A DNA stretch of 64,000 nucleotides, taken from positions 4,662-68,661 of the IMG/VR virus record IMGVR_UViG_2571042804_000002; one strand, 5' to 3'. Below, piece after piece: positions 8,224 to 24,595 of the stretch. The DNA comes from a virus. Lineage: Duplodnaviria; Caudoviricetes. The position numbers and the translations under genes were made by a program. The notes under the pieces are model-generated. The model was not told the DNA's origin. It was given only the letters and a program-made list of their open reading frames with translations, and did no database searches. How positions within the stretch are numbered: position 1 is the first letter of the stretch; each line of letters starts with the position of its first letter.

Positions 8224-11200
8224 TAATTAGTCAAACCTCCCATATAATTATTTGCATTTGCTCTATGCCCACTTTGTTTTGACAATATTTTTTCTAAACC
8301 TCTAATTGCATCATTAGAACCTAAGTTATTATCCTGAGAAGAAACAGTTTGAATCAACGCATCTGTTAATTTATTTCCTTTATCACTTAACATAACAATT
8401 TGTTTCAACAATTTTTCAACTGTAGAAGTATCATTATTTACAGTGATGTTATTTGGCTTGCCATCCATACCGATGATGCGCATAACCTGTTCAGTTAATT
8501 GAATTGCTCGTTTACGTCTAGTTAAAGGGATAACCATCTCCTGTTTATCTCCTTCACCCACTTCAGCAAGTTGATGCTTTGTAATCAAACCACCATTCGC
8601 ATATCTTCTTGGACCACTTGGAGACCAACCACCTCTTGGGTTAAACTGTGAGCGCCAATATCTGTTGTTAAAGAACGCTAATAACTGATCGTAACCACTA
8701 TATATATTGTTGTGACCTCTAACAGCATAATGTCTAAATGTTTGTGGGATATATTGAAGCAATCCTTTTGCTGGATTGCCCTGTAAAACGTTGATGTCTC
8801 TAAGCGAACTAGATTGAGTTATACCTGCATTTCCTCCTGATTCGTGTTGAATCAAGCTAATGATATTTCCTACGTCAGCCGAAGTAACATTAACACCCAT
8901 TCGTTTTGCTGCACGACGTATATCGCCTGCCCAAGCAGATGCAGCCTTATTAACACCTGAACCACTTCGAACGCCACTACCTTTAAGTGACTTCAACCAT
9001 TTTTCTGGATCTTTAGCTGTATCATTCCCTGGATGCGACCCTTGCATCAATTGGAAATGTAAGTGTGCTCCTCTAACGAAATTACCTGTAGCACCTGATT
9101 TCCCTATCAGTTGACCAGCTTTAATACGTTGGCCTTGTCTTGCTAATTGCTTAGATAAATGCATATACCAGTTCCATTCGTTAGCACCGGTCTTAATTTG
9201 TATAGAATTACCGCCACCGTAATCAGTCCATACTTTATCAGCTATACCGCCTTTAACAGCATAAATGTTCGTTCCTGTAGGCATACCAAAGTCGATACCA
9301 TAGTGACGACCGCCATTAAAGTTAAGTCCACCTGTGTAACTCCCAAACCTTTGCCAAATTGGATGGTCAAATAGATAGCTTCCATCGCCTCCGCCACCAA
9401 AATCTTCAAACCACGATTTTACTTTGTCTACTAATTTCTTTTTGAGCAATGAGTACGCGCCTTTAGCAATTTTTACTGTAGCGTTAGCTCCGCCTCCAAA
9501 ATTAATATTTAAACCTGACATTACTTTATTTACTAGTTTCCCTGGATGTTGTACATAATCCCACACATCGCCGATTTTATCGCCTAACCAAGATGCACCA
9601 TCTTTGATTTTATCGCCTGCCGCTTCAACCATTTCTTCTGCACCTTTTTTGATATTATGAGCTGTGTTTTTAGCTTTAGAACCGAAGTCCCCTGCTTTTT
9701 TACCAAGATTTTCAGTAACTTGTTCCATCCATTTTTTCTTTTTCGTACCACCATGGAATTTTGGCAAAACACCCATCCGCTGTAACTTCAGAGTGTCATT
9801 GGCATTTATTACACTATCTCCAACTCCTAGTGGAACAACCACATCTCGTCCTTGGGGTGCATGGAATGTTCCGTCAGCCCTGTGAATTATTTCTTGAACT
9901 CCACCACCTGGGGCGTTTCCAGAACCTCTATCATTTAATACAGCAAATGTCGGTTGCGTTAATGCTCCTGAATTATCGGTAGCTACACCCTTTCCTGCTA
10001 AAGTACCAGTAGACAATGTAGGTATTGGCTTGATGAGATTTTTATCAGTAATGGCTTTAGATATTTTATTAATACCGCCAATCATGCTATTCAAACCGCC
10101 AATAGCTTTATTAGCAACATTTTTACCTAAATCAGCCGCAGCTCTTCCCATGTCTTTACCAATATCTCTAATCCAATCATATGTTTTTGATAGCCATTTT
10201 CTAAAACCATTAAATACTGATTTAGCGTTAGACCATGCCGAACTTGAAATTGCATCAAAACGATCGTGGGCTCTTGAATACATATCCCCAGTCCAACCTT
10301 TTAAAGATTTGTATGAGTTACTAAACCATTTCGATGTTCCTTTCCAAACGGATTTTGCATTCGACCATGCTGTACTAGAAATATTATCCCATTTCGAGCG
10401 CGATTTATTAGCCATATCTGTTAGCCAACCCTTTGCACTTTTATATGCGTTGCTAAACCATTTTGATGTGCCTCTCCAAATAGATTTTGAATGCGCCCAA
10501 GCTTTATCTGAGGCATCTGAATACTTTTGCTTAGTTTGATTGTAAATACTTCCTGTAGTCGATTTAACAGATTGCCAAGCTTTTCCAAACCATTTACCAG
10601 TACTATTAGCTATAGCCTTAGTGTGATATCCTACAGAACTTTTGGCTGAGCTCCAACTTGAACTTAATTTGCTTGGAATTCCTTTGATTCCACTCCACAT
10701 TTTTTTCATTTCGCCGCCAAAATGATTAGCATTTCTGCCCATTTTACTAAAGGCTTCACCAGTTTTAGTTTTTACGCCGTCCCAAGCATTTCCAAACCAT
10801 TTCTTTATATTTTCTCTGTTTCTACGAGCTGTTTCTTCTTGTTCTTTAGCGTATTTATCACTTTTCTTCTTTTGGTCTTCTCTAAAGTTAGACCACCAAC
10901 TTTTAAGACCATTCCACCACTTTTCAGTATTTTTATATACACGTCCACTGGATAAATCCATTTCTTTATCAATATCTTTATTTTGCTTTTTAACAACGTC
11001 TACTACAGCATCTTTTTTAGATTTTGCCTTTCTTACTTCATCCTTATGTCTTTGATCAGCAATAGCTAACAATTTATCTTTTTCAGACTTAGAAAGGTTG
11101 ACGTTATTTTTTATAGCAATGACATCATCTTCATACTGCTTATCCACTTCTTTTTTTCTTGCTTTTCTTGCTTTTTCTGCTTCTTTAATTGCTTTGCTCG

Positions 11201-14200
11201 CTTCGTCTATTGAATAAGCATTTCTGTTTCTTTGCATTCTTACTAAAATACGCTCTTGCTCTTTTTCAGTCTTACTCAATTCTTTAACAGTGATGTCACG
11301 TCTTTGATTTTCAAGCTTTTCAATTTCTTTTCTTTCATTTTCTGAAATCTGACCATCACTTAAAGCTTTTTCTTTCAATTCTTTGATTTTCTGATTGAGT
11401 TCTTGCTCTTTTTTAATTCGCAAGTCATTTTTTTCTTTAGTTCTAGTTAAAATGTTTTGCTTTTCTTGTTCATCGAATGCACTATACTTATCAATAAGTT
11501 CTTGAGTTTTTTCGAGTTCCTTTTTATTTCTTTTTTCTATTTCAGCTATAAGGTTATTAGATAAATCCGCTTCAATTTTCAAAAGTTTTTTTGCTTTGTC
11601 TTCTGTTATTTGACCCGAGTTTAAACGTACTTTTTCCATGATTCTGTTGTTCTCTTCAGAATAGTGTACGTATTTTTCTAAAGCTTTTTCTGTTTCTTTT
11701 GAAACACCTTTCCCCAACACTTTTACAGTATCAGATGCTTTTTTAGAAGCTGTGCCCATGGTTTGCATAAATCCTTTAAACTTGTTGACTCCTACTTTCA
11801 GAAGGTCATCGTCACTCAAAGATTTATAACCATCTTTCATATCCTTTGAAAACTTTTCTTTGAAGCTTTTGCCTATACTTCCAAGATAATTTTTAAACTC
11901 TCCTAGCTTCCTAACAGCACCGCCAATAATTTTGCCACCAAAAAACTTTATAGTTTCTCCTAAACCGTTAATACCGTTTCTGAACCATTCCACACGATCA
12001 TATGCGGTTTTAAAAACTTTATATGCAATTGTAATAGCAGTTATTGTAGCACCTATAGGTCCTGTTAAAAACTTTAAGGCTACACCAGCAAATCTTGCGC
12101 CTCCACTTACTGCAAATAAGGATTTTGCGGCTAATCCTAAACCGTTTTTCAAAAGTTTGAACGGTAAAATTGCTAGCTTTGCAGAATTTTTCAAAACATT
12201 TATAGGTTTTAAATTAAACAACATAGCTCCGGCTAATCCTTTAAAGCCTTTTGACGTTTTTCCTGTTGTAGAACCAAGAAATAATGTTTGAAGACCTAAA
12301 GATTTCATTGCTTTTGAATTGGTATTAGAAAGAATTGTATTTTCAGCAATGCGTCTATTTAATGATGCATAGCCTTTAGCCGCGCTCCCAACTGCACGTA
12401 TTAATAAGCCACCAGCAAGAACAGCAGGACCAATAGATGCACCAAAAATTGCTAAGCCTACCGAAGCCTTTCTAACCCAACCAGGAAGATGTGTAAATCC
12501 ATCAACTAATTTTGTTAATCCTTCCGCACCTGCTCTAATCATAGGCGTTAAATCTTTACCAACTTCAATTGCTAACGATTCAAAAGCGCCACCTAATTGT
12601 TCCAGAGCACCTTTGAGGTTATCTTTCATCAAATCAGCTGCTTTTTTACTTTCACCATTAGAGTTCTTCAATGATTTGCTATAGCTATTAATTTTATCTG
12701 GACCCGCTTCAATCAAGGCTAAAAATCCACTTGCTGCTTCAGTGCCAACTATTGTAGCCACTGTTGCTAATTTTTGTTCTCTCGTCATGCCTTTCATGTT
12801 ATCTTGGAACTGTCTAATCAATTCGCCCATTCCAACAAACTCACCTTTAGCATCAGACAAATGAATACCTAATTTTTTCATTTCCTTAGCTGTACTTTTA
12901 CTTGGATTAGCTAGCCTAATAAACGAAGCTCTTAATGCAGTACCTGCTTGAGACCCCTCTAAACCTGAGTTAGATAAAACTTCAATTGCTGCAGAAGTGT
13001 CCTCTATTGAAACTCCTAATGCTTTTGCTGGAGTACCTGCATATTTTAATGCATCTCCCATATATTGAATATCTGCAGCACTATCATTTGCTGATCTCGC
13101 AAGTAAATCAGCAACATGATTTGCATCAGATGCTTTTAAACCGAAAGAGTTAATCGCTGAAGCCATTACAGTTGCAGTTGTAGCCATTTCTGCACCACTT
13201 GCTTCTGCTGCGCTGATAACACCTGGCATAGCCTCCATTGTTTGTTTGGCATTAAAGCCTAAAGCTGCCAATTCTTCCATACCTTTAGCAACTTCGTTAG
13301 CACTTTTACTTGTTTTAGCTCCTAAGTCAACCGCTTGATTAGACATGCTTTTTAAGTCTTTACTGCTTGCTTGTGCAATCGCTCCAACTCGAGACATTTG
13401 CCCTTCAAAGTCTGCACTCGTTTTTAATGCTGCACCTAAACCTAAAGTAATCGGTGTAGATACGCCCATCGTCATTGTACGTCCCAGGGAAGTCATTTTG
13501 TCTCCAATAGAACTAAATTTCTTTGACATGACATCCGCTTGACTTGCAAGTTTACCGAAATGACTTTGAGCTATCATTTGTTCTTTGTTAAAAGTCTTCA
13601 TTTCGGATGAAGCTTTATCTATTGAACGCTCCAAATTATTTAAAGCAGCTTTTTCTTTATTAACAGCTGTTTCAGCTTTTGCGACATTAGCGCTATGATT
13701 CTTAATAGTATTGTTTAAATCATTAAATTCTTTTTCTGTTTGCTTTAATTTAGTATTAGTTTTAGCGTAAGAACTTTCAATTTTATCATTTGATTTTGAA
13801 AGATTGTCATTTTGCACTTTTAGTTTTTGAACTTGATTGCCTTCTTGTTTATATTGTTCAACAAGTGCTTTATGCTTAGCGGACTGCTTCTGTACTGCGT
13901 CACTTGCTCTTTTTAGTTGTGCAGTAGTAGCTTGGTTACTATTCTTAAGCTTTTGTTCTGCATCTCTCAACTGTTTAAGTTTTTGATACGCATCTTGTTT
14001 ACGTTGATTTGTACGTTTATATTGATTTTCAGCTTTTTTAAGTTCTGTATTCGATGATTTTAAGGCTTCTTTAGATTTATCAAGAGCTAATTTTTCTTTT
14101 TTATTGGCTTCTACTAACTTTAAATATGCTTTCTCAACATCTTTTACACTGGATTTAGCTTTTTGGTAATTAGCGTTAACTTGTTTAAGCTCATCTTCTA

Positions 14201-14423
14201 CTTGAGAATACATCTTTTTTTGAACTTTAAGCCTATCATTTAACCCCTTAATTCTCGCCTGATATTTTTCCATTGATTTTTCAGACTTATCAAATGCTGA
14301 CAGATTAGCTTTCATTTCACTATTAACAACACCTAATTGTCGCTTTAAACCTTTCATGCCTTCTTGGACACCTAAATGGTCTAATTTCAGCTCCAAGGTC
14401 ATGCCTTCTACTTTTTCATTCAT
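8223..14423 (-). CDS. Tail tape measure protein with C-terminal M23 peptidase and lytic transglycosylase (SLT) domains
   Basis: 2066 aa from MNEKVEG; TP901-type core, Trp-periodic repeats, HYGIDF/HLH (M23), HESGG...GLLQ (SLT). Confidence 0.95.
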   Translation of the reverse strand: MNEKVEGMTLELKLDHLGVQEGMKGLKRQLGVVNSEMKANLSAFDKSEKSMEKYQARIKGLNDRLKVQKKMYSQVEDELKQVNANYQKAKSSVKDVEKAYLKLVEANKKEKLALDKSKEALKSSNTELKKAENQYKRTNQRKQDAYQKLKQLRDAEQKLKNSNQATTAQLKRASDAVQKQSAKHKALVEQYKQEGNQVQKLKVQNDNLSKSNDKIESSYAKTNTKLKQTEKEFNDLNNTIKNHSANVAKAETAVNKEKAALNNLERSIDKASSEMKTFNKEQMIAQSHFGKLASQADVMSKKFSSIGDKMTSLGRTMTMGVSTPITLGLGAALKTSADFEGQMSRVGAIAQASSKDLKSMSNQAVDLGAKTSKSANEVAKGMEELAALGFNAKQTMEAMPGVISAAEASGAEMATTATVMASAINSFGLKASDANHVADLLARSANDSAADIQYMGDALKYAGTPAKALGVSIEDTSAAIEVLSNSGLEGSQAGTALRASFIRLANPSKSTAKEMKKLGIHLSDAKGEFVGMGELIRQFQDNMKGMTREQKLATVATIVGTEAASGFLALIEAGPDKINSYSKSLKNSNGESKKAADLMKDNLKGALEQLGGAFESLAIEVGKDLTPMIRAGAEGLTKLVDGFTHLPGWVRKASVGLAIFGASIGPAVLAGGLLIRAVGSAAKGYASLNRRIAENTILSNTNSKAMKSLGLQTLFLGSTTGKTSKGFKGLAGAMLFNLKPINVLKNSAKLAILPFKLLKNGLGLAAKSLFAVSGGARFAGVALKFLTGPIGATITAITIAYKVFKTAYDRVEWFRNGINGLGETIKFFGGKIIGGAVRKLGEFKNYLGSIGKSFKEKFSKDMKDGYKSLSDDDLLKVGVNKFKGFMQTMGTASKKASDTVKVLGKGVSKETEKALEKYVHYSEENNRIMEKVRLNSGQITEDKAKKLLKIEADLSNNLIAEIEKRNKKELEKTQELIDKYSAFDEQEKQNILTRTKEKNDLRIKKEQELNQKIKELKEKALSDGQISENERKEIEKLENQRRDITVKELSKTEKEQERILVRMQRNRNAYSIDEASKAIKEAEKARKARKKEVDKQYEDDVIAIKNNVNLSKSEKDKLLAIADQRHKDEVRKAKSKKDAVVDVVKKQNKDIDKEMDLSSGRVYKNTEKWWNGLKSWWSNFREDQKKKSDKYAKEQEETARRNRENIKKWFGNAWDGVKTKTGEAFSKMGRNANHFGGEMKKMWSGIKGIPSKLSSSWSSAKSSVGYHTKAIANSTGKWFGKAWQSVKSTTGSIYNQTKQKYSDASDKAWAHSKSIWRGTSKWFSNAYKSAKGWLTDMANKSRSKWDNISSTAWSNAKSVWKGTSKWFSNSYKSLKGWTGDMYSRAHDRFDAISSSAWSNAKSVFNGFRKWLSKTYDWIRDIGKDMGRAAADLGKNVANKAIGGLNSMIGGINKISKAITDKNLIKPIPTLSTGTLAGKGVATDNSGALTQPTFAVLNDRGSGNAPGGGVQEIIHRADGTFHAPQGRDVVVPLGVGDSVINANDTLKLQRMGVLPKFHGGTKKKKWMEQVTENLGKKAGDFGSKAKNTAHNIKKGAEEMVEAAGDKIKDGASWLGDKIGDVWDYVQHPGKLVNKVMSGLNINFGGGANATVKIAKGAYSLLKKKLVDKVKSWFEDFGGGGDGSYLFDHPIWQRFGSYTGGLNFNGGRHYGIDFGMPTGTNIYAVKGGIADKVWTDYGGGNSIQIKTGANEWNWYMHLSKQLARQGQRIKAGQLIGKSGATGNFVRGAHLHFQLMQGSHPGNDTAKDPEKWLKSLKGSGVRSGSGVNKAASAWAGDIRRAAKRMGVNVTSADVGNIISLIQHESGGNAGITQSSSLRDINVLQGNPAKGLLQYIPQTFRHYAVRGHNNIYSGYDQLLAFFNNRYWRSQFNPRGGWSPSGPRRYANGGLITKHQLAEVGEGDKQEMVIPLTRRKRAIQLTEQVMRIIGMDGKPNNITVNNDTSTVEKLLKQIVMLSDKGNKLTDALIQTVSSQDNNLGSNDAIRGLEKILSKQSGHRANANNYMGGLTN

Positions 14424-14436
14424 ATTAACCTCCTTT

Positions 14437-14664
14437 CTAGCTTCCAAAAAGTTTTCTTAAATCCGTACCTGTAATGACTTTTTGTTCACTTTGTTTTTCT
14501 TCAGTCTCTTCTTTATTCTCTTCATTAAGTATTTCTAAAAGTTTTACATACGGCTGTTTTCTGACTTCAGTTAATGTCCACCCATACTGCTCCATACAGA
14601 AACGTTGTATTTTCTTAATGTTCGATAAAATGTCTTTTATTGAGATTGTTCTTCTGTCTTTCCC
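14437..14664 (-). CDS. gpT-like portion of tail assembly chaperone, reached by -1 programmed frameshift
   Basis: Slippery GGGAAAG at 14664..14658; -1 frame open for 75 codons to TAG at 14437, just before TMP. Confidence 0.8.
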   Translation of the reverse strand, partial: GKDRRTISIKDILSNIKKIQRFCMEQYGWTLTEVRKQPYVKLLEILNEENKEETEEKQSEQKVITGTDLRKLFGS

Positions 14665-14987
14665 ATCTCTTCTGGTTCAGTTTCTGAATCTTCTTCATCT
14701 TCACCATTGATTTCTCGAAATATATCTTGTAAGGCTTTTGTATAAGTTTTAGTACTCATCTTGTTCAGAACATCTTCTTCAGTCAATCCTTCATCTTTAA
14801 ATAAATCTACTAATAACTGTCGCTCTTTTTGTCTCATTTTTGTTGCGTTAGGTGCTTCTTTTTTATTCTCTTGATTTACTAATTCTAAATACTCATAGCA
14901 TTTTTCTGCTTCGCCCATTGTTACATCTTCTTTTGTATAGCTCTCTGTTTTTCCTGTTTTACGATCTTTAATTTCAAATTTAATCAT
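14637..14987 (-). CDS. Tail assembly chaperone (gpG-like)
   Basis: Between tail tube genes and TMP; acidic C-terminus; contains the slippery site. Confidence 0.85.
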   Translation of the reverse strand: MIKFEIKDRKTGKTESYTKEDVTMGEAEKCYEYLELVNQENKKEAPNATKMRQKERQLLVDLFKDEGLTEEDVLNKMSTKTYTKALQDIFREINGEDEEDSETEPEEMGKTEEQSQ

Positions 14988-15010: not shown

Positions 15011-15036
15011 TAAAAAAGACGCAGATATACTGCGCC
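15011..15036 (-). terminator. Intrinsic terminator after Ig-domain tail gene
   Basis: GGCGCAG-TATAT-CTGCGTC then TTTTTT on minus strand. Confidence 0.7.
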
Positions 15037-15044
15037 TTAAATCC

Positions 15045-15500
15045 CTATCCGTTTGTTACTGTCACTGAAATTTGTCCTGACTTATCGCTTCCATCAGTAG
15101 ACGTAGCAGTGATTACTGAAGTACCTTCAGCTACACCGTGAATTGCTCCTGTATTTTCATCTACAGTAACAAATTCTGGATGTTCACTTGTATATTTCAA
15201 TATTTTATTCGTTGCTGTGCTTGGTGCAATGTTTGGCTCAACATTGTCATCGGTATTTACCATAATTGATTTAGTTTCTGGTGTAAATGATACGCCTGAG
15301 ACTAGAATTGGATTGGTTTTGAATTGAGGTACATCAACTTTACTAGATTCTTTACCATTTTCTTCCCATGCCACTTGGTAAGTACCTTTTGGATAAGTTG
15401 TATCCGCTTCTAAATTAGATAAAGTTACTGACACTTTGCCTTCACCTTGTTCAGAAGCTACGACGTCGTCTCCTTTATAAACCTTTAAAGTTTTAGTCAT
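15045..15500 (-). CDS. Ig-domain virion protein (partial FN3-like N-terminus + Big_2 domain)
   Basis: SVTLSNLEADTTY...YQV (FN3 E/F strands); VSGVSF...PSTATNK...VDENTGAIHGVAEGTSVIT (Big_2); own RBS AAAGGAG. Confidence 0.8.
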   Translation of the reverse strand: MTKTLKVYKGDDVVASEQGEGKVSVTLSNLEADTTYPKGTYQVAWEENGKESSKVDVPQFKTNPILVSGVSFTPETKSIMVNTDDNVEPNIAPSTATNKILKYTSEHPEFVTVDENTGAIHGVAEGTSVITATSTDGSDKSGQISVTVTNG

Positions 15501-15591
15501 AAATTATTCTCCTTTGATTTATTTTGAAAGCCCCTATTCTGCTGAAACTGTTGCAGATTTTGAATTAACTGCTACTTCAACATTTTGGGGA

Positions 15592-16233
15592 TTAGCTGGG
15601 TAACGAACCTGCAGAATCCTCTGAATGATCTTCACTGTCCGTGTATCCAACGAATACTTTTTTGAAGAATTCTGCTTCTCCTTCTTTACCTTCATGATAA
15701 CCGTATACAATACCTTGTGACGTTCCATCAACATCAACTTTTCTATTCATCCAGTCACCTGTTAATTTTGTAGGTTCTGGGGCTTCTGCTTTTTCACCTC
15801 GTGTTTTAAATTCAATTGAATCTAAACTAAAAGTACCTTTAAGTAAGGCTACATATACCGGCTGACCTGTTAAACCATCTTCCGATTCGCCAATTACTGT
15901 TACATACGGTGCTCTTGTATTCTCTCCTACCCAAGATGTACCATTTTTATCTTTAGTACGTCCAATAACTGTGTTTAAATCATCACTTGGAATATTGAAA
16001 ATACTCATGTCAGACTTAACTTCATTAGTACCTTGTTTTTTCATCCATACACGTTTGTTAGATGCAAACATATCTACTAAATCTGGTGCTAAACCTGTGA
16101 TATTTAGGTCAACTGTACCACCTTTTTCATCTTCCCATGTCATGCGTTTAACTACTTTTGTTGCTTCTGGGTTAAAAACTCCAACGTATAATCTTTTAAA
16201 ACCTACTTTATAAGAACCTTGTCCTTCTGCCAT
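15592..16233 (-). CDS. Major tail (tube) protein, phi13 family
   Basis: YKVGFKRLYVG N-terminus; position; strong RBS. Confidence 0.9.
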   Translation of the reverse strand: MAEGQGSYKVGFKRLYVGVFNPEATKVVKRMTWEDEKGGTVDLNITGLAPDLVDMFASNKRVWMKKQGTNEVKSDMSIFNIPSDDLNTVIGRTKDKNGTSWVGENTRAPYVTVIGESEDGLTGQPVYVALLKGTFSLDSIEFKTRGEKAEAPEPTKLTGDWMNRKVDVDGTSQGIVYGYHEGKEGEAEFFKKVFVGYTDSEDHSEDSAGSLPS

Positions 16234-16267
16234 TGCTTATTTCCTCCTTAAAAATTAAAAAGCACAC

Positions 16268-16663
16268 CTATTCGATGCGCTGATTTTTATAATATATATT
16301 TTTGGGTATGCCTTGATATCGTCTCGACATCACATAACGTTTAGTTTCTTCAAAATAAGCATCTAACTGACTAGATGCTTGAATTAAATTTTGTTGATAT
16401 AACAGGTATCTTATTCGTTTTGTTATATCAATTGTTTTCTGATTATTTGAAGATTCTACATCTATTTGAATTAAGTATTCTTCACTGAGATATTTATCAG
16501 ACATAAAGTCTGAAGGCAAATCATAAACAGGTGTAATAACAACAAAGGGTTTGGAAGTTTCAGCGTTTTCAGTGACTTTGTAATAGTATATTCTAGAATT
16601 TATATGTGTTTTGAGCTCTGCATCAGATAATAAAATTCCTTTTATGGTGTTTAATATATTCAT
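16268..16663 (-). CDS. Tail terminator/completion protein
   Basis: Position before tail tube; PFVVI and YLIQIDV motifs. Confidence 0.7.
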   Translation of the reverse strand: MNILNTIKGILLSDAELKTHINSRIYYYKVTENAETSKPFVVITPVYDLPSDFMSDKYLSEEYLIQIDVESSNNQKTIDITKRIRYLLYQQNLIQASSQLDAYFEETKRYVMSRRYQGIPKNIYYKNQRIE

Positions 16664-17065
16664 TTATCTGGCCAACTCCTTTTTTATAATTTCTCTATAC
16701 TTACGTTCGCTAGCAGCTAATGTTTTTGCAATAACTCCAAAACCTCTTGGTGTATATTTTTTTCCATCTCTTGTATAACCATGTTCATTCAAGTGAATAA
16801 TGTTTTTGCGATTCATAGGACCTACCCATTCAATTAAAACAGCCCTTTCTTGACTACCAACTTTTGTATAAGGCTTAGATTTAGTCATTTCTTCTATACT
16901 GGCACCCGTATCTTTAAAGCTCTCGAACTCTTTCTTTAAAGCCTTTATAAAAAATTCAGATGCTTCATTTAAAGCTTTATCACTCTTAGCCTGCATTGCT
17001 TGTTTACCGTATACCGATTCTAATTTATTCAACACTTCAGGTATCCCTTTAATTTCTACACTCAT
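16664..17065 (-). CDS. HK97 gp10-like neck protein
   Basis: SVEIKG...KDTGAS...HLNEHG motifs; position. Confidence 0.75.
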   Translation of the reverse strand: MSVEIKGIPEVLNKLESVYGKQAMQAKSDKALNEASEFFIKALKKEFESFKDTGASIEEMTKSKPYTKVGSQERAVLIEWVGPMNRKNIIHLNEHGYTRDGKKYTPRGFGVIAKTLAASERKYREIIKKELAR

Positions 17066-17394
17066 TTTTCTGATAAAACCACTGTATTATAGCCAATATC
17101 TGGTGTATCAATTCTTATTTCTACAATGTTGAATAATTTATCGGAATATAATGCACTGTCAATTTTAACTAAGTGATTTGTTTGTGGTAGATATTCAGTT
17201 TTAGAAGACCTGACAATTATGGTTAATCCTGATTTTGATTCAGTCGCTTTTAAAATTTCTCTATCTTTCATAGAAGGATTATAAATTTTACAAAAGCAAC
17301 TATACAATTTCATTTTTTCCTCTTCATCTGGATATGGTCCTTTGTTTATATATTGAAAAAAATACGCGCGATCTTTAAATTCATTAAATTCCAT
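17062..17394 (-). CDS. Head-tail adaptor / head closure protein
   Basis: Position and size. Confidence 0.7.
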   Translation of the reverse strand: MEFNEFKDRAYFFQYINKGPYPDEEEKMKLYSCFCKIYNPSMKDREILKATESKSGLTIIVRSSKTEYLPQTNHLVKIDSALYSDKLFNIVEIRIDTPDIGYNTVVLSEK

Positions 17395-17405
17395 TTAAAA
17401 ATCAC

Positions 17406-17684
17406 CTACCACTTTTTTAATTTCAAAATCATTTTTTGCAATCCTTTTTCATTAAACACCTTGCTTCTAGATTGGTCATTTGAGTATCCACGACTTTCAT
17501 AATCTCTTGCAATGATATATTTAATCGCTGTACAAAAAAGCGGGTATTCCAAGTCATCTTTGTCATAATCTGGAACCCCACTTAATAGTAATTCAGACTT
17601 AGCCGATTGAATGAGACCTTCAATTAAATCATTTTCGAAATTATAGTCAATTCTCAACCACAATTTAATTTCTTCTAAACTCAT
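17406..17684 (-). CDS. Head-tail connector (gp6-like)
   Basis: SLEEIKLWLRID...DLIEGLIQSA...YESR motif. Confidence 0.85.
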   Translation of the reverse strand: MSLEEIKLWLRIDYNFENDLIEGLIQSAKSELLLSGVPDYDKDDLEYPLFCTAIKYIIARDYESRGYSNDQSRSKVFNEKGLQKMILKLKKW

Positions 17685-17752
17685 TTCATCACCCCTATTC
17701 GGCTGATATTACAGCTGATTTAGCCTTAGCTGTTACATTAACCTTTTGGGGC

Positions 17753-18916
17753 TTAGCTGGGTAATGGACCTGTATTTTCTTTTGCTTTTGCAATTCTGAA
17801 TGCACTGTCTAATGTACGTTGCTGATCATACCATGCTGTTAATACAAACAAATATTCGCCTTTTTTAACATCTTTATCAGTGTCATAAGTTGTTCCATCA
17901 TAGTTAATTCCAAAATAATTGAAATCTCCCACAATAGGTTTAACTGCTGCATCTGTAAATACTACTGGTTTGCCAAATACTTTTTCTGCTGGTGTGTCAA
18001 AGAAATTTGTTGTTCCATTTGAAAGAACACTAATAATTTTGACATAATCTGCATATCGCATATAAATTGTTGCGTTATCACGGTAATCTTCATGTAAATC
18101 TGCTAAAGCGTTAATAATAGCATCATACATGTCTGCTCCCTCAACTTCTTTAACAGATCCATTATAAAATGACATGTGTTCTAATCCAGATTTAGGACTT
18201 ACTGCTAAGGCATCTTTACGCTCTTTAGCTGCTAATCCTGATTGTAGTGCGTTTTCAACCCAGTTTACTAAATCTACATCTGATCCATGAATTACAGTAT
18301 CTGAAATTGCAGCAAATACTTTGAATTTATTAGTAGTGAACTTGACTGTATCACCTTTTAATTTTAATTCTTTTGCTGTTTCTACGTCTGTAATGAAATC
18401 ATCATCGTCTAAAGTGTATGAAACTCTTGGAATCTCTAAACCTTTAATGTTAGTTAGACGAGCTTTTTCACGTAATTGGTTTTTAGCAAATGGTTCTGAA
18501 ACAATTTCTTTAGAAAGTGTTTTTGGTAAGAGCTTATCTCCACCTGAATCATTACCTGTTGGTAAAGCGTGTAATAAACGTTGTGCCTCCATTGAAGGTT
18601 TTTCAAATTCATTTGGTAAAATCGCGTGACGATAAAACTCTGCCTTAGCTTTAACCATCTTCTCATGATCATTTAAAGATTGATAAGCTTCTCCTGTGTC
18701 TTTAACTTTCGCTTTTTCTTTTTCTTCAATGTCTTGTACTTGTCTTTCAACAATGTTAAATCTTTGTTGTAAGCCTGCTTTTTCTGTTTCTAGTTGTTTG
18801 ATGTCTTCCATATCAATATTTGGATCTGTTGCTTTCTGACTCAACTCATCATTTTTATTTTTTAATTGTTGTCCAATCATACCTAATGATTGTTTTAATT
18901 CATATAATGTCGGCAT
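17753..18916 (-). CDS. Major capsid protein (HK97 fold, N-terminal delta domain)
   Basis: Start MPTLYELK with AGGAGG RBS (upstream ATG at 18961 also possible); coiled-coil N-terminus, VGDF motif. Confidence 0.95.
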   Translation of the reverse strand: MPTLYELKQSLGMIGQQLKNKNDELSQKATDPNIDMEDIKQLETEKAGLQQRFNIVERQVQDIEEKEKAKVKDTGEAYQSLNDHEKMVKAKAEFYRHAILPNEFEKPSMEAQRLLHALPTGNDSGGDKLLPKTLSKEIVSEPFAKNQLREKARLTNIKGLEIPRVSYTLDDDDFITDVETAKELKLKGDTVKFTTNKFKVFAAISDTVIHGSDVDLVNWVENALQSGLAAKERKDALAVSPKSGLEHMSFYNGSVKEVEGADMYDAIINALADLHEDYRDNATIYMRYADYVKIISVLSNGTTNFFDTPAEKVFGKPVVFTDAAVKPIVGDFNYFGINYDGTTYDTDKDVKKGEYLFVLTAWYDQQRTLDSAFRIAKAKENTGPLPS

Positions 18917-18927
18917 TTCATTTCCTC

Positions 18928-19380
18928 CTAATAACTCATTGTCATTTTTAAAATTTCGCATTCGCGTTTAATTTTTTCTCTTTTTTCTTTTTCTTCTAGT
19001 GACATACTTTCTTTAGGTGTTTCAACCAATTCAGATGTATCTACATCATCAATTTTTGTGATTTTGTCTACATCTTTCTTTAAATCTTCCGGGACGTTCT
19101 CGAAACGCTTATACTGCTCTTTAGAGATACTAGCAGCTATTTCATTAGCTCCTAAAACTTCATCTATTAAGCCAAAAGATAAGGCTTCTTCAGCAGTAAG
19201 CCATGTTTCTGCATCTAACATCTGCTTTAATTGTTCTTGATCTAAGTTTTTTGCTTTATCCAAATACGCTGAATTACTAACAGCATCTGTTTTATCAAGT
19301 AAATCCGCTGTCTTTCTTAATTCTTCTGCATTACCTACAGTCATAACCCATGAATTATGAATCATTAAAAAACTATTTTT
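18928..19380 (-). pseudogene. ClpP-type prohead protease, C-terminal part (interrupted by Tn916)
   Basis: KNSFLMIHNSW (catalytic His) ... ETWLTAEEALSFGLIDEV; joins in frame to 37421..37741 to give 257 aa. Confidence 0.93.
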
Positions 19381-19386: not shown

Positions 19387-19460
19387 AAAAATAGCATAAA
19401 AATCTAGTTATCCGCATAAAAACTGGACTTATCACACTTTATCAAGGTCAAAACCACTCA

Positions 19461-19482
19461 ATTTACTACTAATTTACTACTT
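19461..19482 (+). repeat. Tn916 Int arm-type direct repeats (DR-2)
   Basis: ATTTACTACT A ATTTACTACT T; related copies at about 37245..37280. Confidence 0.75.
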
Positions 19483-19580
19483 ATGAATGAGCTTTGATAC
19501 GACGATTTATCCTTGAAAAGTGAAGATATAAAGATACTTCCAATAAAATTTGAATATTTAATAGGTAGACACTTCAAAAA

Positions 19581-19700
19581 ATGAGGTGTCTATTTTTTTA
19601 CCCGATTTTGAAAGGAAGTGAACTTATGAAAACAAAAAATCAAGAATCAAAAGGTCGTTCCCCACTCTTTAAGACCATCAAACATTCATTCAGCCAATAA
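19581..19700 (+). CDS. Tn916 Orf24
   Basis: 39-aa MRCLFFYPILKGSELMKTKNQESKGRSPLFKTIKHSFSQ. Confidence 0.7.
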   Translation: MRCLFFYPILKGSELMKTKNQESKGRSPLFKTIKHSFSQ

Positions 19701-19722
19701 AAAAGAAAGGATAGGTAAAAAT

Positions 19723-20037
19723 ATGGAACTTAAATTTGTGATTCCCAACATGGAAAAAACATTCGGCAATTTAGAATTTGCTGGCGAGGATAAAGTCGTT
19801 CAGCGAAGAATCAACGGACGGCTAACTGTCTTATCAAGAAGCTATAATCTCTATTCTGATGTTCAAAGAGCAGATGATATTGTGGTGGTGCTTCCTGCTG
19901 AAGCTGGCGAAAAACATTTCGGCTTTGAGGAACGTGTGAAGTTAGTCAATCCACGTATTACCGCAGAGGGCTACAAAATCGGCACTCGTGGTTTTACAAA
20001 TTACCTTTTACATGCTGACGACATGATAAAAGAATAA
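19723..20037 (+). CDS. Tn916 Orf23 (YdcP/HelP-like)
   Basis: Recognised sequence and synteny. Confidence 0.9.
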   Translation: MELKFVIPNMEKTFGNLEFAGEDKVVQRRINGRLTVLSRSYNLYSDVQRADDIVVVLPAEAGEKHFGFEERVKLVNPRITAEGYKIGTRGFTNYLLHADDMIKE

Positions 20038-20052
20038 AGAAAGAGAGGAAAA

Positions 20053-20439
20053 ATGATGAGATTAGCAAATGGCATTGTATTAGATAAAGACACGACTTTT
20101 GGAGAATTGAAATTCTCTGCTCTACGTCGTGAAGTGAGAATCCAAAATGAAGACGGGTCGGTTTCAGATGAAATCAAGGAACGTACCTATGACTTAAAAT
20201 CCAAAGGACAAGGACGCATGATTCAAGTAAGTATTCCTGCCAGCGTGCCTTTGAAAGAGTTTGATTATAACGCACGGGTGGAACTTATCAATCCCATTGC
20301 GGACACCGTTGCTACTGCCACCTATCAAGGAGCAGATGTTGACTGGTATATCAAGGCAGACGATATTGTGCTGACAAAGGATTCTAGTTCATTCAAAGCT
20401 CAACCACAAGCAAAGAAAGAACCGACACAAGACAAATAG
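20053..20439 (+). CDS. Tn916 Orf22 (YdcP/HelP-like)
   Basis: Paralogous to Orf23; synteny. Confidence 0.9.
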   Translation: MMRLANGIVLDKDTTFGELKFSALRREVRIQNEDGSVSDEIKERTYDLKSKGQGRMIQVSIPASVPLKEFDYNARVELINPIADTVATATYQGADVDWYIKADDIVLTKDSSSFKAQPQAKKEPTQDK

Positions 20440-20467
20440 TCGCTAGGTAGAAAGGAGACTTTTTCGC

Positions 20468-21853
20468 ATGAAACAGCGTGGTAAAAGGATTCGCCCATCT
20501 GGTAAAGATTTAGTCTTTCATTTTACGATAGCGTCACTCCTGCCTGTTTTCCTGCTGGTTGTCGGACTGTTTCATGTGAAGACAATCCAGCAGATCAACT
20601 GGCAGGATTTTAACCTATCACAAGCAGATAAGATTGACATTCCCTATTTAATTATCAGTTTCAGTGTCGCAATTCTTATCTGCTTGCTGGTAGCGTTTGT
20701 ATTCAAACGGGTTCGCTATGATACGGTTAAACAACTTTACCACCGTCAAAAACTGGCAAAGATGATACTTGAAAACAAGTGGTATGAATCTGAACAGGTC
20801 AAAACAGAGGGTTTCTTTAAAGATAGTGCTGGTCGTACAAAGGAAAAGATAACCTACTTCCCTAAAATGTATTATCGACTTAAAAATGGCTTGATACAGA
20901 TACGGGTGGAAATCACGCTGGGAAAATATCAAGACCAACTCTTACACTTGGAAAAGAAATTAGAGAGTGGCTTGTACTGTGAGCTGACGGATAAAGAGTT
21001 AAAGGATTCCTATGTGGAATATACTTTGCTCTATGACACCATAGCCAGTCGTATTTCTATTGATGAAGTAGAAGCTAAAGATGGTAAACTTCGCTTAATG
21101 AAAAACGTATGGTGGGAATATGATAAGCTCCCTCATATGTTGATTGCTGGTGGTACAGGTGGCGGTAAAACTTACTTTATACTGACACTGATTGAAGCCT
21201 TGCTTCATACAGATTCAAAACTGTATATTCTTGACCCGAAAAATGCTGATCTTGCGGACTTAGGTTCTGTGATGGCAAATGTCTACTATAGAAAAGAAGA
21301 CTTGCTTTCTTGCATTGAAACATTCTATGAAGAAATGATGAAACGTAGTGAGGAAATGAAGCAGATGAAGAACTATAAGACTGGCAAAAATTATGCTTAC
21401 TTAGGTCTCCCGGCACACTTCTTAATCTTTGATGAATACGTCGCTTTCATGGAAATGCTGGGAACAAAAGAAAACACCGCAGTTATGAATAAGCTGAAAC
21501 AGATTGTCATGTTAGGTCGTCAAGCTGGCTTCTTTCTAATACTGGCTTGTCAACGTCCAGACGCAAAATATTTAGGCGACGGAATCCGTGATCAGTTTAA
21601 TTTCAGAGTGGCTTTAGGTCGTATGTCTGAAATGGGCTATGGCATGATGTTTGGCAGTGACGTACAAAAGGATTTCTTCTTAAAGCGAATCAAAGGTCGT
21701 GGCTATGTTGATGTAGGAACAAGTGTCATATCAGAGTTTTATACTCCCCTTGTACCAAAAGGATATGATTTCTTGGAGGAAATTAAAAAGTTATCCAACA
21801 GCAGACAGTCCACGCAGGCGACGTGCGAAGCGGAAGTCGCAGGTGTGGACTGA
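20468..21853 (+). CDS. Tn916 Orf21 FtsK/SpoIIIE-type coupling protein
   Basis: Two TM helices, Walker A GGTGGGKT, LIFDE, GRQAG. Confidence 0.93.
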   Translation: MKQRGKRIRPSGKDLVFHFTIASLLPVFLLVVGLFHVKTIQQINWQDFNLSQADKIDIPYLIISFSVAILICLLVAFVFKRVRYDTVKQLYHRQKLAKMILENKWYESEQVKTEGFFKDSAGRTKEKITYFPKMYYRLKNGLIQIRVEITLGKYQDQLLHLEKKLESGLYCELTDKELKDSYVEYTLLYDTIASRISIDEVEAKDGKLRLMKNVWWEYDKLPHMLIAGGTGGGKTYFILTLIEALLHTDSKLYILDPKNADLADLGSVMANVYYRKEDLLSCIETFYEEMMKRSEEMKQMKNYKTGKNYAYLGLPAHFLIFDEYVAFMEMLGTKENTAVMNKLKQIVMLGRQAGFFLILACQRPDAKYLGDGIRDQFNFRVALGRMSEMGYGMMFGSDVQKDFFLKRIKGRGYVDVGTSVISEFYTPLVPKGYDFLEEIKKLSNSRQSTQATCEAEVAGVD

Positions 21854-21861
21854 TCTTGCTG

Positions 21862-21916
21862 GCTGGTGTGGCAATAGCCACGCCAGCACTTACCCCCCCG
21901 TATCTAACAGGGGGGT
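21862..21916 (+). promoter_or_regulatory. Tn916 oriT
   Basis: ACCCCCCCGTATCTAACAGGGGGGT inverted repeat plus upstream GC hairpin, between orf21 and relaxase. Confidence 0.85.
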
Positions 21917-22030
21917 ACAAATCGACAGGAAACAGTCAAAAAAACATTAGAAAATCCTTTGGTTACAAGGGATTTACAAAATTTCAGCGTATGTCAAATG
22001 GGCTTTAAAAGTTGACATACGCCTTTTTGA

Positions 22031-23236
22031 TTGGAGGGATTTTTACTGAATGAACAAACTTGGTTACAGCATTTAAAAGAAAAACGCTTGGCTTATGGAC
22101 TATCTCAAAACCGTTTAGCTGTTGCGACTGGTATTACAAGGCAGTATCTAAGCGATATTGAAACAGGAAAAGTCAAGCCATCAGAGGATTTACAGCAGTC
22201 CCTTTGGGAAGCTCTGGAACGCTTCAATCCCGACGCTCCCCTTGAAATGCTGTTTGATTATGTAAGAATTCGCTTTCCGACAACAGACGTACAGCAGGTG
22301 GTCGAAAACATCTTACAACTGAAACTGTCCTATTTTCTTCATGAGGACTATGGTTTCTATTCTTATTCAGAGCATTATGCTTTAGGCGACATATTCGTCC
22401 TTTGCTCCCATGAACTGGACAAAGGAGTTCTGGTGGAATTGAAAGGTCGTGGGTGCAGACAATTTGAAAGCTATCTTCTGGCACAACAAAGAAGCTGGTA
22501 TGAGTTCTTTATGGACGTTTTGGTGGCTGGCGGTGTGATGAAACGCCTTGACCTTGCCATTAACGATAAGACAGGGATTTTAAATATCCCTGTACTCACT
22601 GAAAAGTGCCAACAGGAAGAATGTATCTCCGTCTTCCGCAGTTTTAAAAGCTATCGCAGTGGCGAACTGGTACGCAAAGAGGAAAAGGAATGTATGGGAA
22701 ACACCCTCTATATCGGTTCATTACAAAGTGAAGTTTATTTCTGTATCTATGAAAAGGACTACGAGCAGTACAAGAAAAATGATATTCCCATTGAAGACGC
22801 AGAAGTAAAAAACCGTTTTGAGATTCGATTGAAAAATGAGCGTGCCTATTATGCAGTCCGTGATTTACTCGTCTATGACAATCCAGAGCATACCGCCTTT
22901 AAAATTATCAATCGGTATATCCGTTTTGTAGATAAAGACGATTCCAAACCTCGTTCTGATTGGAAACTGAATGAAGAATGGGCTTGGTTTATTGGGAACA
23001 ATCGTGAACGATTAAAACTAACCACAAAACCAGAGCCTTACTCCTTCCAAAGGACGCTGAACTGGCTATCTCATCAAGTTGCCCCGACCTTAAAGGTTGC
23101 GATTAAACTTGATGAAATCAACCAGACGCAGGTTGTAAAAGACATTCTCGACCATGCGAAACTGACAGACCGACACAAGCAGATTTTGAAGCAACAGTCA
23201 GTAAAAGAACAGGACGTGATAACAACAAAAAAATAA
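22031..23236 (+). CDS. Tn916 Orf20 relaxase (MOBT/Rep_trans, N-terminal HTH)
   Basis: HTH, RLDLAIND, TLYIGS, YEKDYE, RFEIRL motifs. Confidence 0.93.
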   Translation: MEGFLLNEQTWLQHLKEKRLAYGLSQNRLAVATGITRQYLSDIETGKVKPSEDLQQSLWEALERFNPDAPLEMLFDYVRIRFPTTDVQQVVENILQLKLSYFLHEDYGFYSYSEHYALGDIFVLCSHELDKGVLVELKGRGCRQFESYLLAQQRSWYEFFMDVLVAGGVMKRLDLAINDKTGILNIPVLTEKCQQEECISVFRSFKSYRSGELVRKEEKECMGNTLYIGSLQSEVYFCIYEKDYEQYKKNDIPIEDAEVKNRFEIRLKNERAYYAVRDLLVYDNPEHTAFKIINRYIRFVDKDDSKPRSDWKLNEEWAWFIGNNRERLKLTTKPEPYSFQRTLNWLSHQVAPTLKVAIKLDEINQTQVVKDILDHAKLTDRHKQILKQQSVKEQDVITTKK

Positions 23237-23278
23237 CTCAAATACAAATTCATTGAATATAGAGAGGAGAACATTTTT

Positions 23279-23500
23279 ATGAATTTTGGACAAAACCTTT
23301 ATAACTGGTTTCTATCAAACGCTCAATCACTGGTGCTTTTAGCAATCGTTGTGATTGGCTTGTATCTTGGCTTCAAGCGTGAGTTTAGCAAACTGATTGG
23401 CTTTTTAATTATTGCGATTATTGCGGTTGGCTTAGTCTTCAACGCTGCTGGAGTAAAAGACATTTTACTAGAGCTATTCAATCGCATTATTGGTGCTTAA
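23279..23500 (+). CDS. Tn916 Orf19 membrane protein
   Basis: Two TM helices; synteny. Confidence 0.88.
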   Translation: MNFGQNLYNWFLSNAQSLVLLAIVVIGLYLGFKREFSKLIGFLIIAIIAVGLVFNAAGVKDILLELFNRIIGA

Positions 23501-23616
23501 ATAAAACCGTTCTTTTGTGGAATATAAGTGGTTTTCTTATGTTCCGCAAAGGAATGGTACACCAAACGAAGTGCGGTAGGGATTTTTGAATCTCTACAAA
23601 GAAAGGACGTGAATAT
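23501..23616 (+). other. Probable Tn916 single-strand origin region (sso916)
   Basis: orf19-orf18 intergenic region; assigned from recalled literature position only. Confidence 0.45.
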
Positions 23617-24114
23617 ATGGACGATATGCAAGTCTATATTGCGAATTTAGGCAAATACAATGAGGGCGAATTGGTCGGTGCGTGGTTTACCTTTCCCATT
23701 GACTTTGAGGAAGTCAAAGAGAAAATCGGCTTGAATGATGAATATGAGGAATACGCCATTCATGACTACGAGTTACCCTTTACGGTTGACGAATACACTT
23801 CCATTGGCGAACTCAATCGACTATGGGAAATGGTATCGGAATTACCCGAAGAATTACAATCGGAGCTATCTGCTCTGCTCACTCATTTTTCAAGCATTGA
23901 AGAACTAAGCGAACATCAAGAGGATATTATCATTCATTCCGATTGTGATGATATGTATGACGTGGCACGCTACTACATTGAAGAAACGGGTGCTTTAGGC
24001 GAAGTACCAGCTAGTCTTCAAAACTATATTGATTATCAAGCCTATGGTCGGGATTTAGACCTTTCAGGAACGTTTATCTCAACCAATCATGGGATTTTTG
24101 AAATCGTCTATTAA
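23617..24114 (+). CDS. ardA: Tn916 Orf18 anti-restriction DNA mimic ArdA
   Basis: Highly acidic; YIANLGKYNEG, YIDYQAYGRDL motifs. Confidence 0.93.
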   Translation: MDDMQVYIANLGKYNEGELVGAWFTFPIDFEEVKEKIGLNDEYEEYAIHDYELPFTVDEYTSIGELNRLWEMVSELPEELQSELSALLTHFSSIEELSEHQEDIIIHSDCDDMYDVARYYIEETGALGEVPASLQNYIDYQAYGRDLDLSGTFISTNHGIFEIVY

Positions 24115-24202
24115 ATCTGTCGGTACATTACTACTGGCAGATTTTCTATTTTACGGGGTGGCTCAATCAGCTACCCCTATTTTTTATGAAAGGATTGATT
24201 AC

Positions 24203-24595
24203 ATGAAGAAAATACGAAGCTATACCAGTATCTGGTCTGTGGAAAAGGTACTGTATTCTATCAATGATTTTAGACTTCCGTTTCCCATAACCTTTACGCA
24301 AATGACATGGTTTGTCGTGTCACTCTTTGCAGTGATGATACTTGGCAACTTGCCCCCTCTTTCCATGATAGAGGGAGCATTTCTCAAATACTTTGGGATT
24401 CCTGTGGCTTTCACATGGTTTATGTCTACAAAAACTTTTGATGGTAAAAAGCCTTATGGATTTTTGAAGTCTGTCATTGCTTATGCACTGCGACCAAAGC
24501 TGACCTATGCAGGAAAAAAAGTAACGCTTGGCAGAAACCAGCCACAAGAAGCCATTACAGCAGTTAGGAGTGAATTTTATGGCATATCCAATTAA
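24203..24595 (+). CDS. Tn916 Orf17 (TcpE/VirB3-like)
   Basis: RBS supports MKKIRSY start (longer 24089 start also open); DGKKP motif. Confidence 0.85.
   Translation: MKKIRSYTSIWSVEKVLYSINDFRLPFPITFTQMTWFVVSLFAVMILGNLPPLSMIEGAFLKYFGIPVAFTWFMSTKTFDGKKPYGFLKSVIAYALRPKLTYAGKKVTLGRNQPQEAITAVRSEFYGISN

Follow-up and report, generated by a model that had tools for sequence, protein, structure and literature searches.

A 21-codon +1-frame tag shared by the capsid and tail-tube genes of a Staphylococcus aureus Triavirus prophage, and its possible docking of a half-FN3 Ig-like protein

The stretch of DNA analyzed here (the window) covers 64,000 nucleotides (positions 4,662 to 68,661) of the IMG/VR virus record IMGVR_UViG_2571042804_000002. 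Judged from its sequence, it carries a Staphylococcus aureus prophage of the phi12/3A/IPLA35 type (genus Triavirus), and between positions 15000 and 18000 its identity is 99.9-100% to the phiSa2wa phages, SMSAP5, and phiSauS-IPLA35 and 96-98% to 3A and phiSLT. We focus on three genes of this region, encoding the major capsid protein, the major tail (tail tube) protein, and a small immunoglobulin-like (Ig-like) protein, and on a short +1 reading frame (the tag) found at the 3' ends of the first two, which may link their products to the third. The genes from capsid to tape measure all lie on the minus strand, as do the tags, hairpins, and other elements of this region described below. The major capsid protein gene (17753..18961) encodes a 402-aa HK97-type protein with an N-terminal delta region (Pfam Phage_capsid, E 8.3e-16), and the major tail protein gene (15592..16233) a protein of 213 aa (Pfam Phage_TTP_1, E 8.6e-14). 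The Ig-like protein gene (15045..15500) starts at an ATG behind its own ribosome-binding site (RBS; AAAGGAG, 15509..15515) and encodes 151 aa.

The capsid and tail genes both end in TTA CCC AGC TAA. This context belongs to a 21-nt motif, TTACCCAGCTAANCCCCAAAA, which occurs twice in the window (17744..17764 and 15583..15603), each time at the 3' end of one of these two genes, and for which none of 100 shuffles gave any match. The CCC of the capsid gene (17759..17761) is codon 401 of 402 and the sole CCC among 14 proline codons, and that of the tail gene (15598..15600) is codon 212 of 213 and the sole CCC among 8. Both gene ends hence carry a rare CCC proline codon beside a stop or a slowly read codon. 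Read in the +1 frame from there, both genes continue for 21 codons up to TAG GGG, giving the capsid tag (PAKPQKVNVTAKAKSAVISAE; 17695..17760, TAG included) and the tail tag (PANPQNVEVAVNSKSATVSAE; 15534..15599, TAG included), with 12 of 21 residues identical; the two differ at 17 bases, 10 of them at third positions of the +1 frame. The common gene ends and the pair of similar 21-codon frames had been pointed out in an earlier note made from the letters of the window, and both were reproduced here. At these sites, a fraction of ribosomes would pause with tRNA-Pro on the sole CCC of the capsid or tail-tube mRNA, the tRNA would slip by +1 and re-pair on CCA, and the slipped ribosomes would append 20 further residues (a 21-residue tag including the proline) before stopping at the conserved TAG. 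The predicted junction peptides of the frameshift products are ...SLPANPQNVEVAVNSK and ...LPAKPQK.

Each tag is moreover enclosed in an RNA hairpin, a new element of the tag layout that was absent from the earlier note. The capsid hairpin (17692..17751; minimum free energy, -23.5 kcal/mol; z score, -1.8) and the tail hairpin (15531..15590; -19.6 kcal/mol; z score, -2.4) share the same architecture: the structure begins 7 nt after CCC and consists of an outer CCCC/GGGG helix, whose arms are "TAA N CCCCAAAA" and "GAA TAG GGG," and an inner helix of ~14 bp, with the whole tag inside. In relatives, the hairpin folds more strongly than in the window copies (z about -5 for two frameshift tags). A consensus structure drawn from 30 distinct sequences comprises 18 pairs, with 92.6% of its cells paired, a figure that drops to 38-54% on sliding of the partners, and its covariation score of 0.350, against 0.04-0.15 with partners slid, was reached in none of 500 shuffles; compensatory changes occur in 8 of the 18 pairs (e.g., UA 13/AU 12 and GC 15/AU 9). 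No such hairpin is found at three in-frame tags, for which a slip is not required, two of them in phage G15 (z +1.2 and +0.15) and one in locus L066 (z -0.5), the L numbers being our labels for collected loci. What lies downstream of each shift codon is therefore an RNA structure at a short and fixed spacing, which from a distance of 7 nt would help the tRNA to slip +1. We consider the hairpin probably a stimulator of the +1 frameshift, a putative role that fits the precedent of the structure located 3' of the shift site in the cps gene of Listeria phage PSA. The candidate that the tag hairpins act as intrinsic terminators was rejected, as a terminator scan of the window found no terminator or T run at either of them and calls only two terminators, of which one follows the Ig-like gene and the other precedes the tail gene.

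Relatives were collected with two queries: the tail-tube protein gave 5 loci, in other Staphylococcus species and in a metagenome-assembled genome of Pseudogracilibacillus, and the 151-aa protein gave 63 IMG/VR loci, with identity down to 40%. A peptide-pattern script run over the collected loci and the window returned 130 tag matches. In the diverged siphovirus loci, the +1 tag follows both the capsid and the tail genes in all except L006 and L062, where only the tail tag is present. The shift site varies among relatives (CCC AGC TAA, CCC AGT TAA, CCC TAA, CCC TAG, and CCC TCA TAG) around a constant CCC, which stands directly before the stop in most of them and one codon before it in the window, and all 41 distinct relatives' sequences show CCC at the equivalent site, then 7 nt, then CCCC. 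In 10 of 12 relatives, the +1 frame is stopped within 10 codons upstream of the capsid site, thus pinning the shift to CCC. In addition, a blind scan of IMG/VR used a pattern made of the shift site and the first third of the tag only; of its 97 matches, 95 were evaluable, among which 84 extend as a 21-codon +1 ORF (open reading frame) and 83 end in TAGGGG, so that the layout is found far beyond chance.

The tag is exactly 21 codons long in 87 of 87 distinct tag sequences from related phages, and the position of the ending stop is likewise kept in 87/87. Within the unpaired loop of the hairpin, Ser15 is kept in 82/87 by means of five codons (TCT 30, TCA 21, TCG 19, TCC 8, and AGT 4) and Lys14 in 71/87; Val7 is kept in all 87 and Ala20 in 86 of them, each via four codons. 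The other frames across the tag are closed, the 0 frame in 87/87 and the third frame in 83/87. Taken together, the constant length, the residues kept through synonymous codons, and the closure of the other frames indicate, at the level of sequence, that the tag peptide is translated and under purifying selection in a conserved open +1 frame running from the shift site. The earlier note had tied its proposal to conservation of the +1 frame among relatives, which these 87 tags bear out. It had also argued for selection from the synonymous differences between the two window copies; the selection holds on the unpaired loop codons across relatives, but the argument from the window pair is confounded by the hairpin that lies over the tag. 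Besides, a constraint at the RNA level explains why the rare CCC at the Pro4 codon (85/87 tags) and the TAG GGG stop (86/87) are near-invariant. It could then be proposed that only the RNA hairpin is functional, as an mRNA stabilizer or processing site after two highly expressed genes, and that the open +1 frame is a by-product. The strong conservation with covariation speaks for this proposal, which would account for the invariant CCCC and TAGGGG; yet it hardly seems credible to us, given that unpaired loop codons are kept at the amino-acid level via up to five codons, that the same peptide is found in frame without a hairpin in G15 and L066, that neither hairpin has a T run or terminator, and that a published virion mass of 25,208 fits the tagged tail protein.

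This mass comes from Stverakova et al. (2018; PMC5923470), who applied MALDI-TOF mass spectrometry to purified, intact phages of staphylococci. In six Triavirus phages, common peaks are found at m/z 7936, 11,645, 12,598, 15,871, 23,295, 25,208, and 30,373, among which Table 3 of that paper assigns 23,295 to the major tail protein and 15,871 to an "Ig-like domain" protein, leaving 25,208 without assignment in section 3.3 and Table 3 (PMC5923470). From the window's own sequence, with the initiator Met removed, we computed 23,294.7 for the tail protein against the published peak at 23,295 and 15,871.2 for the 151-aa protein against that at 15,871. The Ig-like protein is, moreover, among the proteins most often detected in intact purified Triavirus virions (PMC5923470), and on these published data it is an abundant virion component. 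For the tagged tail protein, the predicted mass is 25,204.7 Da, 3.3 Da from the 25,208 peak, and the 893 ORF starts of the window give one other product within 15 Da of this peak (25,219.0, from an internal start near the window end). In terms of mass, the 25,208 peak thus agrees with a tagged tail protein in virions; the doubly charged form of this species, expected at ~12,605, may account for the peak at 12,598. Altogether, the conserved site, the conserved and selected peptide, and the published virion mass fitting the tail product argue for a +1 slip at CCC that probably tags some of the capsid and tail-tube subunits, the tagged capsid being a predicted product.

The 151-aa protein itself combines two modules. 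Its residues 1 to ~64 (15309..15500) form a half-FN3 module with strands C, C', E, F, and G according to AlphaFold2 (AF2) models and a profile search, and residues ~65-151, with the stop codon, correspond to a Big_2 Ig-like domain (15045..15308), recognized by Pfam Big_2 (PF02368) at residues 67-140 with 37.6 bits for a cutoff of 22.8. This half-FN3 is the only one in the window, and the tags are two. AF2 was run on the 151-aa protein alone (alignment of 19 sequences) and on a read-through form joining the tail tag to the 151-aa protein with X at the three intervening stops (14 sequences). In the model of the protein alone (predicted local distance difference test [pLDDT], 95.6), the N-terminal 64 residues show strands 3-9, 12-19, and 42-47 plus short bridges, and the E-strand region (residues 20-34) is not called as a strand, leaving a five-strand half FN3 with C-G only, that is, an incomplete Ig-like fold, in line with where the profile starts. 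In the read-through model (pLDDT 92.4), two strands come from the tag (8-11 and 15-20, with a block pLDDT of 91-96), the linker comes out disordered, and the segment left unpaired in the lone protein becomes a paired strand (56-61, E). Tag and N-domain then make up a seven-strand sandwich (A, B, E/C, C', F, G), and residues 1..95-98 superpose on complete FN3 domains (1k85, Z 10.2, rmsd [root mean square deviation] 2.0, 81/88 residues; also 7jgu, 4n68, 5x83, and others), while residues 98-184 match Big_2 domains (7quz, Z 14.7; Ig domain of the T5 tail tube protein pb6, Z 12.6). The earlier note had likened the tag to FN3 strands A-B and read the next gene as strands C-G followed by Big_2, and the models agree with it on both counts.

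At the sequence level, the N-domains of relatives give fn3-type matches below threshold, to fn3_2 (PF16893; positions 31-85/89, E 0.019) and fn3 (PF00041; positions 41-76/84, E 0.09), scoring 15.6 and 13.4 bits where the cutoffs are 27 and 25, and Pfam and PDB sequence searches of the read-through product returned Big_2-type matches only. Searching 1.84 billion representatives with a half-domain profile retrieved 276 proteins at E up to 1e-3; among the 150 matches listed, ~90 (hand count) are short and match the profile from residue 1-12 onward, and most of the others are long proteins with many internal FN3 repeats. One small protein, P0140, is an unsplit homologue with its A-B strands contiguous with C-G. 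From these matches, the half domain belongs, in truncated form, to an ordinary FN3 lineage, and being truncated is a trait of its family.

The location of the Ig-like gene, just upstream of the tail assembly chaperone genes, and the minority of subunits that would carry a tag could also suggest a transient interaction, in which the half-FN3 protein would assist the assembly of tagged subunits as a chaperone or scaffold and would not be a lasting decoration. We regard this as improbable, as the Ig-like protein is among those most often detected in intact purified virions (PMC5923470) and as Big_2 domains on capsid or tail proteins of T5 (pb6), phi29, and Douge are surface decorations, by the titles of their entries.

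Tag and half-FN3 gene also travel together. The co-occurrence of the two, which the earlier note had proposed to survey, is found in 48 of 67 tag-bearing IMG/VR loci, which hold a near-full half-FN3 ORF; 18 of the others have too little flank and one (L098) shows a partial match. The half-FN3 domain starts at most 12 residues from the preceding stop in 47 of the 48 loci, and the usual position of the ORF is 85-140 nt downstream of the tail tag or ~2.2 kb downstream of the capsid tag. In the window, the Ig-like gene is in the frame of the tail tag, with three stops (TAG, TAA, and TAA) between them. Among relatives, the gap from tag to gene is 24, 25, 27, 28, 32, 33, 34, 36, 71, or 233 nt and falls in all three frames, and the half-FN3 gene always has its own strong RBS, with AAGGAGG at the same place despite the variation of the gap. 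The same-frame arrangement of the window is thus incidental. Read-through or hopping from the tail tag to the Ig-like gene was rejected on account of the three stops and of the relatives' gaps in all frames with an RBS, so that the claim of the earlier note that an in-frame stop blocks a read-through fusion and that the gene uses its own RBS is strengthened.

The same data bear on the possibility that the tags are functionless remnants of a former tail tube-FN3-Big_2 frameshift fusion, in the style of A118 or SPP1, later split by stops. It would be suggested by the common frame and the distance of 33 nt between tag and Ig-like gene in the window and most relatives, by the existence of unsplit FN3 homologues (P0140), and by phage A118, in which the +1 extension is a whole Big_2 domain. 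Nevertheless, a remnant should not keep exactly 21 codons in 87/87 tags with residues maintained through synonymous codons, nor a hairpin whose pairing is maintained through compensatory changes; the capsid gene is tagged without an Ig gene after it, and the gap ranges from 24 to 233 nt in all three frames. We therefore hold this possibility to be very unlikely, close to refuted by the conservation data.

Gene order around the tag is not uniform. Locus L063 (4268..4500) has an extra small ORF (~68 aa) between the tail tag and the Ig-like gene, accounting for the gap of 233 nt, and shows that tag and Ig-like gene need not adjoin. In three IMG/VR loci (L091, L128, and L108), the half-FN3 gene is situated upstream of the tag matched by the pattern, at a distance of 2.3-2.6 kb. 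In the siphovirus locus L066 (4501..5022), an in-frame tag (PEEPENVEVDPNEDSADVSAE) forms the end of the Ig-like protein itself and from its sequence suggests a further link of a chain, and in other lineages the C-terminus of the Ig-like protein is an acidic EEPEPEEPSTEE tail similar to the start of the tag.

Such a chain is more apparent in Staphylococcus phage G15 (Kayvirus, 140 kb, JQ686190; L069 3823..5246), where three chain genes are adjacent. The first encodes a 215-aa protein with an in-frame tag (PSAPKNVQVTPKEDGADVSAE) at its end, the second a 173-aa protein made of a half FN3, a Big_2 domain, and its own C-terminal tag, and the third a 75-aa protein consisting of a half FN3 only; the names in GenBank for this trio are "Ig-like protein" and "major tail protein" (twice). 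Prominent peaks in kayvirus virions come from three adjacent gene products of 23,069, 17,718, and 7,818 Da (PMC5923470), and the masses of the G15 ORFs are 23,038, 17,733, and 7,829 Da, the strain measured in that work being other than G15. For a virion protein that is reduced to the half domain and whose gene comes right behind a tag, it is hard to find an explanation other than a role as partner of that tag.

Altogether, we think it fairly likely that the tag, carried by head and tail subunits, docks the half-FN3 protein in trans and thereby completes an FN3 domain. The tag would provide FN3 strands A and B, which would insert into the incomplete C-G sandwich and complete the fold, the 151-aa protein (FN3 strands C-G plus Big_2) being made separately from its own RBS. 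HK97-type capsid and tail-tube proteins generally have outward-facing C-termini. One and the same Ig-like protein would then be held noncovalently on both head and tail, where its Big_2 domain would, by analogy with other phage Ig-like domains, probably act as a weak adhesin.

Alternatively, the tags could be produced by frameshifting but act alone, as surface peptides or as assembly or spacing signals, with the Ig-like protein joining the virion otherwise and the FN3 likeness reflecting ancestry. Frameshift extensions that are not Ig-like are indeed known in Listeria phages (24 acidic residues on the PSA tail; SAP-like segments on the PSA and A118 capsids), and AF2 models the half domain confidently without the tag. 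We nonetheless find this unlikely: tag and half-FN3 gene travel together (48/67 loci, the rest short of flank), the 75-aa virion protein of G15 is a half domain only and comes after a tag, the residues kept in the tag (V7, V9, A/V16, I/V18, and A20) follow the i, i+2 pattern of buried strand positions, and the 151-aa protein has, according to Pfam, no other module to hold it on the virion.

Several points weigh against frameshifting at these sites or against docking as proposed. In the window, AGC is a sense codon between CCC and the stop, unlike a classical shifty stop. The agreement with the 25,208 peak, within 3.3 Da, is a coincidence of masses rather than a sequenced peptide, and no mass of a tagged capsid is among the shared Triavirus peaks given in section 3.3 (PMC5923470); the 30,373 peak was considered as the processed capsid protein, and no N-terminal cut fits it, the nearest giving 30,416.9 and 30,303.7. 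As to the fold, Pfam gives no fn3 match for the window protein or the read-through form even at E up to 10, and BLASTP of the read-through product against the unsplit P0140 aligns the C-G part only. AF2 folds any contiguous FN3-like chain, so that the read-through model speaks for a fit of the pieces but not for their association; moreover, the lone half domain has a very high AF2 pLDDT and is thus not flagged as unfolded. Finally, a transposon interrupts this prophage copy, which makes expression here doubtful.

Listeria phages PSA, A118, and A500 and Lactobacillus phage A2 are established cases of recoding in both the capsid and the tail gene (PMC5009743). In Listeria, tsh is subject to a +1 shift on a rare CCC proline codon next to the stop (CCC_UGA), and the cps gene of PSA has a downstream RNA structure (PMC5009743). 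The window resembles PSA, A118, and A500 in that the major capsid and tail genes are both, here probably, recoded near their 3' ends, by +1 on a rare CCC. Ribosomal slippage is annotated for both genes in the PSA record, unlike the IPLA35 record, which gives a plain coding sequence for both. The PSA tsh site is ACA CCC TGA, with an acidic extension of 24 residues, its cps site is ACA CCC TCC, with an extension that is SAP-like by eye, and the A118 tsh site is AAA CCC TGA, with a +1 extension that forms a whole Big_2 domain. The capsid extensions of PSA (L007 5148..5290) and A118 (L152 6082..6240) contain a segment that by eye is SAP/HeH-like (...VAELKEEL...), unlike the FN3 tag or an Ig-like domain. 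The extensions of PSA and A118 are thus unrelated to the tag described here, whereas in the window the same 21-residue, two-strand tag is found on both genes and the rest of the domain is a separate product.

In Bacillus phage SPP1, gp17.1* carries an FN3 domain on the exterior of the tail tube, in a fraction of subunits and through a frameshift at the gene end, which is thought to mediate weak adhesion to cell-wall carbohydrate (PMC8718954). In SPP1, as presumably here, a gene-end frameshift puts an FN3 part on some tail-tube subunits, and the two systems share the recoding device and, apparently, its purpose; SPP1, however, fuses the whole FN3 covalently, whereas here A-B would be fused and C-G plus Big_2 supplied in trans and shared with the capsid. 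The extension of 21 residues and two strands is accordingly not a complete folded domain of the SPP1 gp17.1* or A118 Tsh-L type. The earlier note had cited SPP1 and Listeria phages as precedents for adding Ig or FN3 domains by +1 slips, which stands for SPP1 (FN3) and for the A118 tail (Big_2), but the Listeria extensions are not FN3 and that of the PSA tail is a short acidic peptide.

Completion of an Ig-like fold from another polypeptide, as proposed here, recalls chaperone-usher pili, in which an Ig-like fold lacking strand G is completed by the N-terminal extension of another subunit, resulting in a very stable noncovalent link. Here, in contrast, two strands (A and B) are missing, the donor would be a C-terminal extension that exists only after a frameshift, and both family and cellular context are unrelated. 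In SpyTag/SpyCatcher and other engineered split Ig-like domains, a tag and a truncated beta-sandwich reconstitute a domain locked by an isopeptide bond; the split described here is natural, and nothing suggests a covalent bond. The earlier note had asked for a check for prior descriptions, and our literature search found no account of Triavirus capsid or tail frameshifting or of split-FN3 docking; the original IPLA35, phiSLT, PSA, and Dorscht papers and supplements were outside its scope, and those on IPLA35 and phiSLT could mention two protein forms. Hence, paired capsid and tail frameshifts and Ig-like decorations are known, and what we have not found described is a frameshift product that is a docking tag only, with the remainder of the domain as a separate virion protein.

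Between the two tagged genes, the head-tail connector gene (17406..17684) is followed by three small head/tail completion genes, located between the connector and tail tube genes. A terminator-like hairpin with a T run (15016..15038) lies directly 3' of the Ig-like gene, ahead of the tail assembly chaperone gene (14637..14987; 116 aa, Phage_TAC_19) and the tape measure protein gene (8223..14447). The stretch between tail assembly chaperone and tape measure genes is the usual place of the gpG/gpGT -1 frameshift, and here a 52-aa ORF (14437..14595) follows the chaperone gene and overlaps the start of the tape measure gene. On the other side of the capsid gene, a Tn916-family conjugative transposon is inserted within the prophage at approximately 19400..37700, with an FtsK-like gene (20468..21853), a Rep_trans gene (22031..23236), an AAA_10 gene (24528..27026), a Tet(M)-like EF-G-family gene (31496..33430), and a Tn916-type integrase gene (36029..37246). 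Only the C-terminal half of a Clp-type prohead protease gene (18928..19365) adjoins this element, and the phage genes (portal and terminase) resume beyond it at 37725, with the portal gene at 37725..38963. The protease gene is apparently cut by the transposon, and this copy of the prophage is probably defective and maybe without virions. The finding rests on sequence, and identical or near-identical sequence is present in plaque-forming phages.

If true, docking of the Ig-like protein by a frameshift-made tag would account for the abundant "major tail protein 2" that virions contain without an anchoring domain, for the 25,208 virion mass common to Triavirus phages, and for the peculiar set of three small "major tail proteins" encoded by therapeutic kayviruses. 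The annotation of a phage group that includes phages carrying Panton-Valentine leukocidin would be corrected as well, and such docking would represent a natural, dose-controlled protein display on staphylococcal phages. More broadly, we lean slightly toward the view that many phages of Gram-positive bacteria, from the S. aureus Triavirus and its relatives to kayviruses, use a natural tag-and-catcher system in which a two-strand FN3 tag, either dosed by a hairpin-assisted +1 shift or encoded in frame, captures five-strand proteins, which may allow decorations to be shared by head and tail, swapped, or daisy-chained without covalent fusion.

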